Of a DNA stretch of 64,000 bases, positions 40,592 to 43,500 are shown piece by piece. Made by a program: the position numbers. The number at the start of each line of letters is the position of its first letter. Positions within the stretch are counted from its first letter, which is position 1. The DNA comes from a phage, in sequence record PZ674596.1. One strand, given 5' to 3'.

Positions 40592-43500
40592 TAATAGCGG
40601 AAACGGAATGGGGAACTCATTCCGTTTTTGTTTATCGCCTTAGACGGCAAAAGTGCTGTCGCCCACCTGCGCTTGCGCATACCAGGCCATAAGCTCCGTG
40701 GTTCCTGGTTCTCCTTCCGCTGGAGCCCAGTGCGCATAGTCATCGGCAGCCACGGGTTGATAGCCACCGTGTTTTACTTCAAAAATTATGCCACCGGTAT
40801 CCAGCGACAGCACGGCATGCCAGGTTCCTGCGGCCATCTCCAGCACCGTACAGGTTTCCCCCAATATCGCCCGATGGGTGACGGTACCCCGATCGTCAAA
40901 ATTCAGCACCACGAAACGACCCCTTAATGGCAACAGTAGCTCGAAGGTGTGAGGGTGTCGGTGCGGGCGCACGTAGGTCCCAGGTCATATTCCTTCCGGC
41001 GTCCGGCATTTTACCGCCAGACAGCTCGGGATTCGTGATATCACCGTTCTTGCAGAATACGGTTTGGAAAAATTGTTATTCGTCTTGAAAACGGCGTCAT
41101 CGTTCGTGCGAGCGGCATTAAGCATAAATATCTGGATGAGATCTGGAACAACAAAGAGAAGTACCGTGGTCGTATTGTCGAGGTTCATTGTCACGAGAAA
41201 ACACCGGACGGCAGCTTACGCCACCCACGACTGAAATGGCCGCGTTGCTTACGCGATACAGAAGATCGAATCGGAGATAAAGAATGATGCTCGGCTGGAT
41301 GATTGCATTTTTAGCAGTTGGTTTTTTCATAGGTATTGTGGTGATGTCCAGTTGCATCAATGACTACATTAAAAGCGGTGTTATAGAAAGACGCGGTCGT
41401 ATTTATCGCATTGTAGAAATAACCAACACCCTGAAGGAGATTAAGGATGATCGTATTAAGTAAACGGGAGAAGGAAACGCTTCATGAAATCAGTAAGTGG
41501 CCGGAGTTCCCTGAGTACTGGAAGCCTAAAACGCGAGCTAAGTTAGAGCGTTTAGGGTTGGTTGCAAACGTTTCTGAAACGTGGTGTTCGGCCAACTACC
41601 AGTTAACTGATAAAGGGAAAGTATTGCTACAGCAATTAGTAGAATCAGGAGCGTTAAAATGATTCCATACATCTCATTAGCTTTTATGGGTGGCTTCCTT
41701 ATCGGCTTCGGCATCTGTCGTGATTTAATTAAGCAGGAACTTAAAACCAAAACACTGTGCATCGGAAAGCGTGTGTATCGGGTAGTTCATGAAACAAAGG
41801 TGAAAAAATGAGCAATTTAACTTCTTGGGAATGGTGGTTGGCCACCTATTTCTTAGCGGCCGGAGTCGCATTCGCCTTTTACGTAGGTCAGTTAGTCGTA
41901 AAACTGTTGCTGATTAAATTTGCTAGTCATAAACGTATCGATGATGGTCTGTGGCGTCTTGGCACCCTGGTGGAAACTCGCTACGGGCAACTTAAGGAGA
42001 ACGAAACCATTACTATCCAAGCGAAACGATTCACTGCCACCATTACAAGAACACCTAGTCGTAGAGTGGCCTTGATCAAAAAAGTCACAACCGAATAAAA
42101 ACATATTGATAAGTATTTACTTACTTATCTTTTGTGTATAAGATGACTTTGTTTTCGTTGAGACGCGACTGTTTGAACTTAAATACAAGTGCAAACGAAG
42201 AAGTCTATCTGGCAGTAGCCTAATAAGCCAAACACCAGCGAGGTCAGTTTCCAGCCTCGTTACCGAAATGGGACACACTGAGCGAGTGTGATTGCAGAAC
42301 GCAGGAGGGAACATTCATGTTCCCTCCGATGAAGTAACAGAATGGGCGGTTGGTATATTTTCAACTCCATATGACTCCCGGATTCTTAGCCACTGACCGC
42401 CCATCCTGTTACGTCATTTTGTTCAATTATGTCGTTTATACTGGGTTAAAAAGCGGCGACGTAGCCCGGCTGGTATGGTTAGCCAGCACATAACGTTGAG
42501 GCCATTACATTTTTATCAATTCTAAGGTTCTATTCACAGAGATACCGGCGAGCGTTGATATGTAACATGTTGGGCAAACATTCAATCGGAGTAGTGGCCT
42601 CAACGTTGTGAAGACAGGATTGTTGTGTAGGTTTAACCACTGTTGCCATTGGTGCCTGTTTTCACAACAAATGATTCCATACATCACATTGTATAAATTA
42701 CAAAGTAGGTGCTGTCCTCAGAAACATCATCTACTTAAAGATTTTGCCTTCTACTATTGAGCGAAGTCGAAAGCGTCTGGCACTAACGAAAAGTGCAAGT
42801 AGCGGTGCGTTTCCTGGCAGAAACTAAACCGTCGCGATTGGCACTGTTGAGTAATAAATACTGGCAGTGCTGAATTGATGGTGTAGCTCAGCGGTAGAGC
42901 AGTTGGCTGTTAACCAACTGGTCGGTGGTTCGAATCCACCCACCATCGCCAATTTAGGGGAGTTAGTCCGTAGGGGCAGCGGGGTAGACTGTAAATCTAC
43001 TGTCATGGCGACTCGGGTGGTTCGACTCCATCACTCCCCACCAAATTGCCGGTTTAGCTCAGTTGGTAGAGCGCCTGCCTTGTAAGCAGGATGTCAGCGG
43101 TTCGAGTCCGTTAACCGGCACCAACACAACAGGTAAGTGCATTGGGCGAATCGGCGATACTGACCCACAAGCCCGTAAATCGATAGAGTCAGACCAGTGC
43201 TCTTACCGTTGTGAGGAAGTGCAGCTCTTTGAGGCAACCAGAAGATAAGCATCTGGCTTCACAACACAACGATAAGATCATTACGGTTAATCGTCGTTCA
43301 TGTGCACAATGACTGGTCGAAAGGTAGTGATCTTACCGTTGTGGTGGATTCGCAGACTGATGCGATAGCTTTCTTGGATGTTAGGGAAATGCGGCCGCAA
43401 ATCTTCCCTTTCGCGAGCGGTGATCGTCCGTAGTCCTAATTGGCTGCACCGTATGCCGGAGATTCAGTACCGGCCACCACAACGGCCGGAGAGTAGGGAG

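Follow-up and report, generated by a model that had tools for sequence, protein, structure and literature searches.

The stretch analysed here (hereafter the window) comprises 64,000 nucleotides (nt) of sequence record PZ674596.1, an SSU5-like phage-plasmid of Escherichia coli, and the region under study is 100% identical to CP025888.1 and NZ_MG904996.1. The region holds four tRNA genes, whose Asn, Tyr, Thr and Ser cloverleaves were recognised by ARAGORN and Rfam, an ORF-free leader of about 780 base pairs (bp) before tRNA-Asn, and a spacer between tRNA-Thr and tRNA-Ser (Table 1; positions are those of the window). Nearly all of 42099-43760 would form one plus-strand transcription unit with RNA from about 42151 and RNA products only, consisting of a "head" of about 150 nt, a string of hairpin or tRNA-like modules, the four tRNAs and a terminator. 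The head (42151-42303) looks like a derivative of the message part of transfer-messenger RNA (tmRNA; SsrA, encoded by ssrA); it is the most informative feature of the region and was not flagged in the first-pass annotation, which had drawn attention to the palindromes around the tRNA cluster.

A weak match of the Rfam beta_tmRNA model at 42172-42274, together with a weak blastn match to the leader of phage P7, led to the reading of a tag frame at 42191-42226 (+), GCA AAC GAA GAA GTC TAT CTG GCA GTA GCC TAA TAA, which would encode ANEEVYLAVA followed by two stops; the corresponding frame of E. coli ssrA is GCA AAC GAC GAA AAC TAC GCT TTA GCA GCT TAA TAA (ANDENYALAA and two stops). No start codon or Shine-Dalgarno sequence was found for the ANEEVYLAVA frame, which, as in tmRNA, opens on a GCA resume codon and ends in an alanine-rich hydrophobic C-terminus. 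The tags of relatives read ANDDLMMAAA in P7, ANEDTYLAVA in SSU5 and ANDNQYLAVA in Klebsiella. By blastn the head matches E. coli ssrA 79-125, and four Rfam tmRNA models placed their tag region on the head stretch in different loci, all below threshold (best scores 14-17 bits vs gathering scores of 47-84). The nucleotides at -6 to -1, which set the tmRNA reading frame, are AUAAAU in relatives and ACAAGU in the window, with A at -6 and -4 as in AUAGUC of E. coli, and the stretch of the relatives that is equivalent to the A-rich linker was accepted by the resume-consensus detector of ARAGORN.

Scanning IMG/VR by tag pattern yielded at least 120 loci. A second scan, anchored on a downstream pseudoknot and independent of the tag, yielded 69 further loci outside the first pattern, and these again carried GCA AAC, eight codons and a stop (e.g. 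ANDDVVLMAA, ANDDLMLMAA, ANEERFLMAA and ANDQTFLAVA). Among 66 distinct homologous sequences, exactly ten codons precede the stop in 60, the variable sites of the frame are the third positions 6, 9, 12 and 30, the final Ala codon varies among GCC, GCT and GCG, and the stop varies among TAA, TAG and TGA. In SSU5, a 1-nt indel disrupts the frame upstream of the GCA. Comparison of these homologues shows that the putative tag template is under coding constraint. A second ten-codon frame, at 42796 (ASSGAFPGRN and a stop), was rejected as not conserved in SSU5.

Five helices of the head (the helix 5 analogue, the stems of a pseudoknot resembling tmRNA pseudoknot 2 (PK2), and stem 1 of a second pseudoknot) were tested on 34 diverse homologous cores. 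In these, 92.2% of cells were paired, vs 33-43% when the 3' partners were slid, double-sided changes were seen in 11 of 21 pairs, and none of 500 shuffles reached the observed covariation. The helix 5 analogue was paired in 100% of cells, with GC-to-AU double changes or the reverse in 11 of the 34 sequences. In the PK2-like element both sides had changed in three of five pairs of stem S1 and in all four pairs of stem S2, and the beta_tmRNA model aligned its own PK2 on 42239-42273; the pairs given for the window were read by eye, the window type being offset by one column in the 34-core alignment. Stem 1 of the second pseudoknot was 99.5% paired, with double changes in three pairs, and its stem 2, read by eye from the alignment, varies in length (GCCC/GGGC, GCCCUGA/UCAGGGC, GACGGGAG/CUCCCGUC).

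The head has no tRNA-like domain. It is without the 7-bp acceptor stem with G3.U70, the T-arm, the 3' CCA and the helix 2 of tmRNA, and pseudoknot 1 is replaced, the 40-55 nt before the resume codon being, in relatives, an inverted copy of ssrA. ARAGORN at default settings called no tmRNA, whether in the window or across 129 loci related to it, no Rfam tmRNA model matched at its gathering threshold, and no T-loop motif was found outside the four tRNAs in the 64 kb; the covariance-model and ARAGORN scans proposed in the first-pass annotation thus recognised the tRNAs, but for tmRNA returned at most sub-threshold matches. The core always begins with GUUUUCG. Upstream of it lies a terminator (P7 and our loci L031 and L126), a module strand, or a promoter-like site (SSU5 group), and the tRNAs downstream vary by group (Asn and others, Ser-Arg-Met, or none). 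In Aeromonas phage pAh6-C the unit of about 150 nt stands alone between two promoter-like repeats, again without a tRNA-like domain. No acceptor piece of the two-piece tmRNA kind lies upstream of the head in the window, where a protein gene and a promoter-like site are found. Other candidates were set aside: tRNA-Asn as the acceptor part was ruled out, since in relatives the downstream tRNAs are different or missing; "tmRNAp" calls by relaxed ARAGORN, with the right tags, were rejected because their halves differ between loci and false calls appear alongside; and the T-loop-like UUCAACU (42360-42366) and GGGCGGUUGG (42343-42352), both matching ssrA, were ascribed to chance, being unconserved in SSU5 and Klebsiella.

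The counterpart of the 5' arm of the window in host tmRNA (nt 81-104) spans the host resume codon, and RNAduplex placed the arm there on E. coli ssrA at -22.9 to -26.3 kcal/mol (18 of 24 positions). Relatives carry longer arms at the same place, to which the arm of the window is positionally homologous. Reverse-complemented, E. coli ssrA 105-56 gives AGUUUUCGUC GUUU GCGAC UAUUU UUUGCGG C UUUUUA CGAGGCCAACC, and the arm of the L016 type reads AGUUUUCGUC ACGUUA GCGAC UUUGCGG AC UUUUUA GAAACUGACCAC. In Smith-Waterman alignment of reverse-complemented arms with ssrA, 0-3 of 1000 dinucleotide shuffles scored as well in 7 of 12 lineages, the match site was always ssrA 68/80-106, and the sense strand of the arms gave no match in the same lineages. 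Duplex energies of the long arms had z-scores of -3 to -5, with the pairing within ssrA 49-106. Taken by alignment, these comparisons show that the 5' arm of the long-arm relatives copies host tmRNA nt ~68-106 in inverted form. Complementary to host codons 3-5 (GAC GAA AAC U), the block AGUUUUCGUC stays constant while phage codons 3-5 vary freely; the arm therefore appears to be matched to the host RNA and not to its own tag. Pairing of the arm in cis with its own tag was considered and rejected, being weaker than pairing with host tmRNA and without covariation. The targeted template region of tmRNA is single-stranded, and it was invariant in the sampled Enterobacteriaceae loci.

Beyond the head, the leader as a whole folded with z = -5.97 (0 of 20 shuffles as stable) and the Thr-Ser spacer with z = -3.14 (0 of 100). 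The earlier view that the ~780 bp before tRNA-Asn hold no convincing open reading frame (ORF) holds: only mechanical ORFs of 30-65 amino acids (aa) occur, and relatives differ by indels. The leader is conserved in SSU5, Cyrano, Klebsiella pJN2-26 and plasmids of Enterobacter and Citrobacter, and is truncated in Yersinia pestis pMT1, where the caf1R/caf1M (F1 capsule) locus cuts it after about 500 nt (L008 ~2007-2019), no tRNA follows and the tmRNA-like head is kept. Helix covariation was assessed on 18 divergent SSU5-like leaders. This alignment to relatives, which the first-pass annotation had called for, revealed compensatory changes in helices that were 93-100% paired, and G.U cells outnumbered A.C cells by 179 to 4; the structure is therefore read on the plus-strand RNA and not on DNA or the other strand. 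Of the three origins that had been offered for the palindromes, a structured non-coding RNA was thus borne out, and operators were not, as the sequence changes with the pairing kept. Comparison among relatives shows the named palindromes to be stems of conserved, predicted plus-strand RNA helices and not operators.

The palindromes themselves needed some redrawing. The repeat at 42304-42327 is real, but it is not the perfect 24-bp palindrome described: 11-nt arms GGAGGGAACAT / ATGTTCCCTCC surround a non-palindromic TC. The apex of this hairpin carries inserts of 2-20 nt in relatives, so the form in the window is the minimal one of a variable module; a 6-codon ORF with a Shine-Dalgarno sequence inside it (MFPPMK) was dismissed, being lost in relatives. 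An imperfect 13-bp repeat exists, yet is the core of a longer one of 22 nt (91%; 42329-42350 / 42396-42417) and, in the comparative fold, of 25 pairs (42328-42354 / 42392-42418). Likewise the third repeat, AACGTTGAGGCC / GGCCTCAACGTT, is present as the core of a 20-nt, 90% repeat at 42489-42508 / 42591-42610. Missed earlier were the repeats 42605-42618/42655-42668, 43336-43347/43474-43485 and 43577-43596/43635-43654 and the operator-like 42108-42129. The modules 42489-42610 and 42605-42668 adjoin, with GUUGUG common to both (42489-42668, +).

The modules around the tRNAs share closing stems that vary around CACAAC-A-GGUAAG-N-GCAUUGG ... CCAGUGC-U-CUUACC-GUUGUG. The 12-mer CTTACCGTTGTG does occur twice between tRNA-Thr and tRNA-Ser, at 43202-43213 and 43332-43343 and not at 43203 and 43335 as first given; both copies form the 3' side of long hairpins that have the CACAAC motif on the 5' side (43124-43145/43194-43213 and 43262-43284/43324-43346). 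In the 43124-43213 module an inner 7-bp stem, GCAUUGG/CCAGUGC (43138-43144/43194-43200), is acceptor-like. Identity of the 74-nt piece at 43208-43266 with P1, P7, D6, Sashavirus and Salmonella temperate phages is 81-96%. In the module at 43336-43485, hairpins at the 5' side (UCGCAGACUGAUGCGA) and the 3' side (GCCGGAGAUUCAGUACCGGC) flank a variable centre, and the module ends CCACCA-like immediately 5' of tRNA-Ser; its family, for which Rfam gave no match, comprises 22 variants with conserved terminal hairpins, the order GUUGUGGUG, hairpin UGCGCAGGCUGAUGCGCA, variable centre, hairpin GCCGGAGAUCAGCACCGGC, CACCACAA, and a compensatory change from GCCGG/CCGGC to GUCGG/CCGAC.

Individual parts of the Thr-Ser spacer turn up on their own in P1/P7/D6, Sashavirus, Salmonella temperate phages, Klebsiella siphoviruses and ~150-kb myoviruses, where identity to the spacer is 72-97%. 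The spacer measures 8, 213, 217, 224, 294, 320, 364 or 490 nt in plasmids otherwise 98-99% identical, and Cyrano is without it. Related phages carry modules with the same closing stems that combine a T-arm (GGGTTCGAATCCC) with a D-like arm and an acceptor-like stem of 7 bp, without anticodon arm and CCA, and in P1-like relatives a module with D-like arm and T-arm stands at the position of 43124-43213. No T-arm was found in the modules of the window, which keep the 7-bp GCAUUGG/CCAGUGC stem; degraded tRNA remnants, the last of the origins suggested earlier, are thus a partly fitting description of the hairpin modules. The modules probably serve RNA processing and stabilise the tRNAs and the head, some being tRNA-like in relatives, and they appear to have been swapped by recombination at the repeated stems.

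Several individual elements of these islands deserve record. tRNA-like elements with odd acceptor stems and without CCA lie within about 150 nt of the core in L213, L211, L116, L019 and L016: the "tRNA-Ala" of St11Ph5 (L213, 711-782) has G4.U69, the element of PhiSH19 (L211, ~707-775) has U3.U70, and that of L116 has G3.U70, as read by eye. Between core and tRNAs of L126, an IMG/VR contig (2724678972-like), Rfam abiF scored 59.4 bits vs a gathering score of 37 (3688-3724, -), and in P7 (L004, 3247-3362) a partial match to the Salmonella small RNA (sRNA) STnc100 scored 43 vs 47 bits, after tRNA-Ser and a hairpin module; sRNAs previously listed for Salmonella prophages may therefore account for some of the modules. 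The 5' closing strands (43124-43140 and related modules) contain CAACAG/GUAAGU, the eukaryotic 5' splice-site consensus, which is probably a coincidence, although the match is strikingly conserved across modules. Permissive Rfam scans (E <= 5-10) gave no GOLLD, ROOL, YrlA, C4, group I intron or ribozyme, and only tRNA, weak tmRNA and obvious noise.

Table 1. Coordinates of the predicted RNA elements, tRNA genes and signals of the region (window positions; MFE, minimum free energy).
Feature	Coordinates	Strand	Sequence or pairing	Basis or remark
Operator-like inverted repeat	42108-42129		GATAAGTA-N6-TACTTATC	overlaps promoter-like site; read from sequence
Weak sigma-70-like promoter	-35 42116-42121; -10 42139-42144	+	TTTACT, 17-nt spacer, TAAGAT	inferred
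5' arm	42151-42174	+	GUUUUCGUUGAGACGCGACUGUUU	apparent eroded antisense copy of host tmRNA nt 81-104
A-rich linker before resume codon	42175-42190	+	GAACUUAAAUACAAGU	A at -4 and -6
Helix 5 analogue	42209-42212 with 42235-42238	+	CUGG with CCAG	stop codons in loop
PK2-like pseudoknot	42239-42273	+	S1 CGAGG 42239-42243/CCUCG 42255-42259; S2 UUCCA 42249-42253/UGGGA 42269-42273	
Hairpin and tail	42274-42290, tail to 42303	+	CACACU-GAGCG-AGUGUG	stem 1 of the second pseudoknot of relatives
Hairpin module	42304-42327	+	stem only, 2-nt apex	
Helix	42304-42311 / 42320-42327		8 pairs	100% paired; 6 pairs with double changes
Long hairpin module	42328-42418	+	closing stem AACAGAAUGGGCGG / CCGCCCAUCCUGUU	repeat search and covariation
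Helix	42328-42354 / 42392-42418		25 pairs	99% paired; 2 with double changes
Helix	42427-42436 / 42455-42464	+		99-100% paired; 0 double-change pairs
Helix	42469-42474 / 42482-42487	+		99-100% paired; 1 double-change pair
Helix	42489-42507 / 42592-42610		19 pairs	99% paired; 4 with double changes
Helix	42605-42618 / 42655-42668		14 pairs	93% paired; 4 with double changes
Three conserved short helices immediately 5' of tRNA-Asn	42780-42871	+		comparative alignment
tRNA-Asn(GUU)	42877-42951	+		ARAGORN; Rfam tRNA 75.5 bits
tRNA-Tyr(GUA)	42957-43043	+		ARAGORN; Rfam tRNA 39.7 bits
tRNA-Thr(UGU)	43048-43123	+		ARAGORN; Rfam tRNA 74.9 bits
Module after tRNA-Thr	43124-43213	+	ACACAACAGGUAAGUGCAUUGG ... 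CCAGUGCUCUUACCGUUGUG	MFE fold; holds first 12-mer
Hairpin	43208-43266	+	GUUGUGAGG...CUUCACAAC	74-nt piece common to other phages
Module	43262-43346	+	CAACACAACGAUAAGAUCAUUAC ... GUAGUGAUCUUACCGUUGUGGUG	repeat search; second 12-mer; common to ~150-kb myoviruses
Multi-arm module	43336-43485	+	closed by CCGUUGUGGUGG/CCACCACAACGG	repeat search; 97% identical in P7
tRNA-Ser(UGA)	43488-43574	+		ARAGORN
Hairpin module after tRNA-Ser	43577-43654	+	CACAGCGUUGAGCGGUUUGG / CCAGACCGCUCAACGCUGUG	20-nt, 95% repeat
Intrinsic-terminator-like hairpin	43734-43753	+	GGGGC-UUCG-GCCCC then U6	read from sequence

The transcription start predicted from the promoter-like site, at about 42150-42151, falls on the 5' edge that the conserved core has in other phages, and 42108-42144 is invariant among the window, Cyrano and SSU5. 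The overlapping repeat at 42108-42129 may be a repressor operator by which the RNA is linked to lytic growth or induction; in P7, C1 repressor operators lie at the equivalent place, before the P7 copy of the element. The hairpin at 43734-43753 is likely the end of the RNA operon, and is absent from the list of the signal scan. For tRNA-Ser(UGA), Rfam also scored tRNA-Sec at 43487-43571 (46.6 bits, gathering score 47); as ARAGORN calls an ordinary long-arm tRNA-Ser, the Sec score most likely arises as an artefact of a class II tRNA. The surroundings are a replication and early gene block (helicase, ligase, glutaredoxin, integrase, DnaE). A 311-aa mechanical ORF at 39659-40594 (+) is, as recognised from its sequence, presumably a CTX-M-type class A beta-lactamase, by which this SSU5-like phage-plasmid would carry an extended-spectrum beta-lactamase insertion immediately before the small phage genes that lie 5' of the leader. 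In SSU5-like records (those of SSU5 and Enterobacter plasmids) the small gene that lies before the leader bears the label "C-type natriuretic protein", probably an annotation artefact.

The best single explanation of the whole, which we hold tentatively and at a little short of probable, is an RNA-only unit whose tmRNA-derived head would dock on host tmRNA and there block the tag template or take its place. The arm would anneal to the single-stranded template region of host tmRNA (linker, resume codon and first five codons) and so mask the host tag and resume codon. The phage linker and resume codon would then be placed by host pseudoknot 1, at 9-16 nt from the duplex end vs the native 11 nt in E. 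coli ssrA; pseudoknot 1 is known to tolerate replacement by a hairpin. Host tmRNA-SmpB would supply the alanyl-tRNA-like function and ribosome entry, with the phage RNA decoded as message, and stalled ribosomes would be rescued with proteins ending in ...YLAVA in place of the ...YALAA degradation signal. Since ClpX reads the terminal LAA, rescued proteins that end in ...LAVA could escape degradation. That a widespread new class of phage RNA re-templates host rescue in trans, with phage tags ...LAVA, ...LAAA and ...LMAA replacing the SsrA degron, is a possibility that we advance with greater reserve.

Several observations weigh against this explanation. Trans-translation from a template merely base-paired to tmRNA has, to our knowledge, never been demonstrated. 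The short arm of the window is not significant when taken by itself (z = -1.0; 167 of 1000 shuffles), and its antisense property is therefore argued from positional homology with the long arms. Shuffled arms also reach -20 to -30 kcal/mol by RNAduplex, which makes these energies a poor statistic, and alignment-versus-shuffle tests were used in their place. Some singleton arm variants disrupt predicted pairs, and no covariation between arm and host tmRNA was found with 118 bacterial ssrA loci, the target being too conserved among the relevant hosts to inform. In the window type, the second pseudoknot has a poor stem 2. Finally, a consensus promoter scan found none at 42108-42144 at its threshold, and the promoter there is treated as putative for that reason.

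The arm evidence would serve equally for a pure antisense inhibitor or sponge, in which the head blocks or destroys the host tmRNA template (e.g. by way of RNase III), SsrA tagging is switched off and the phage frame goes untranslated. With a single-stranded target and no call on new ribosome biology this is the simplest mechanism, yet we regard it as unlikely, for it leaves unexplained why the ten-codon frame, the stop, the third-position variation, the -6 to -1 context and the stop-in-loop hairpin are kept across diverse phages. Another account would be an ordinary leader and spacers of a tRNA operon, with hairpins for RNase processing and stability and the tmRNA-like piece an inert fossil of a captured ssrA. 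The module content is indeed very fluid (a spacer of 8-490 nt, absent in Cyrano, and a pMT1 leader truncated by the caf1 operon), but conservation is highest in the head, which persists in pMT1 and in many unrelated phage families and is present without any tRNA, and a fossil would not retain codon periodicity and covarying pseudoknots; this account is improbable.

Of the remaining two, an autonomous split tmRNA, with the head as coding piece and a phage tRNA-like module as acceptor in trans or by pairing, is quite improbable. Modules without anticodon arm that have a T-arm and a 7-bp acceptor-like stem do adjoin the core in about 25 of 129 loci, the L116 module has G3.U70, the "tRNA-Ala" of St11Ph5 lies about 120 nt upstream of the core, and relaxed ARAGORN reports "tmRNAp" with these tags; however, no such module exists in most loci, in the window or in the minimal pAh6-C unit, module positions vary, most modules have A3-U70 with U4.G69 and no CCA, the ARAGORN halves are inconsistent, and there is no space for an acceptor strand at the 5' end of the core. 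Elements acting at the DNA level, with the palindromes as repressor operators, origin or recombination sites, would suit the location in a replication and early block, the operator-like repeat at 42108-42129 and the C1 operators of P7, and repeated closing stems could promote module exchange. Against them, half-sites are unconserved while pairing is kept, spacing varies, the apex inserts differ in length, and the 179:4 asymmetry of G.U over A.C would be meaningless for duplex DNA, so that we consider them very improbable.

Set beside bacterial tmRNA (RF00023), the phage head is alike in its GCA AAC GA start without a start codon, its ten codons and a peptide resembling ANDENYALAA, in the A-rich upstream context with A at -4 and -6, in the stop within a helix-5-like loop and in the pseudoknots after the tag. 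It differs in having no tRNA-like domain (G3.U70 acceptor stem, T-arm, CCA) or helix 2, in a tmRNA-antisense stretch where pseudoknot 1 would be, in only two pseudoknot-type elements downstream, and in length (about 150 nt, vs about 360 nt for bacterial tmRNA). The two-piece tmRNAs of alpha- and beta-proteobacteria and cyanobacteria (RF01849, RF01850, RF04321) likewise have a coding RNA separate from the 3' acceptor half and held to it by pairing, and their Rfam models give the best, still sub-threshold, alignments of the head; in contrast to the phage head, they have their own upstream acceptor piece and a 5' acceptor strand on the coding piece, and the proposed partner of the phage head is the complete tmRNA of the host. 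Trans-acting antisense sRNAs resemble it in a 5' segment of 24-47 nt imperfectly complementary to a single-stranded host RNA, but the head would target tmRNA itself, with the arm fused to a copy of the target's own template. Structured non-coding RNAs are known to accompany phage tRNA clusters (T4 species 1 and 2 RNAs, GOLLD, ROOL); like them, the leader is structured, co-located and probably co-transcribed with the tRNAs, and unlike them, it is a chain of small exchangeable hairpins.

Phage-borne derivatives of ssrA have precedents in the tmRNA genes of the mycobacteriophage Bxz1 group and Bacillus phage G and in the RNA of DS6A, which holds the tRNA-like domain only; these are complete tmRNAs or the tRNA-like half, whereas the head is the opposite (message) half with an antisense arm. 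DS6A keeps one tmRNA half only, and interference with host trans-translation has been proposed for it; in the 2014 census, which covered RefSeq phages and plasmids, ssrA was reported from mycobacteriophages only, with Bacillus phage G and DS6A named from outside the dataset (Hudson et al. 2014, PMC4131195). Full-text literature searches found no description of the tmRNA-like element reported here.

The core is present in 752 phage records, beneath which the annotation is "none" or a spurious ORF. Its carriers include Kuttervirus (Vi1-like), Felixounavirus, Gamaleyavirus, P1/P7, SSU5-like and N4-like elements, ~47-kb siphoviruses, and Erwinia and Aeromonas phages. Of 5426 complete E. coli genomes, 258 carry the window type, and the annotation pipeline PGAP annotates nothing there. 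In wV8 (L212 886-1026, -), a "hypothetical protein" ORF overlaps the RNA core on the opposite strand, probably an annotation artefact.

On the most conservative reading, which is well supported by the comparative evidence, the locus represents a new family of pseudoknotted RNA, together with exchangeable RNA modules, in phage tRNA islands, and offers a target for annotation in those phage records and in about 5% of complete E. coli genomes. Phage tRNA genes are thought to counter defences that cut tRNA or mRNA, and such situations create stalled ribosomes. Enterobacterial phages may use the head to block or rewrite host protein tagging. If the head acts on trans-translation, P1, FelixO1-, Vi1-, N4- and SSU5-like elements carry an unannotated tmRNA-directed device, and to the SSU5-like group belong the backbone of Y. 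pestis pMT1 and plasmids by which blaCTX-M is spread. If the re-templating model is true, it would describe the first trans-translation event with three RNAs and the first virus to rewrite a host quality-control tag, and would provide a natural experiment on frame selection by tmRNA and possibly a tool for custom C-terminal tagging of stalled products.

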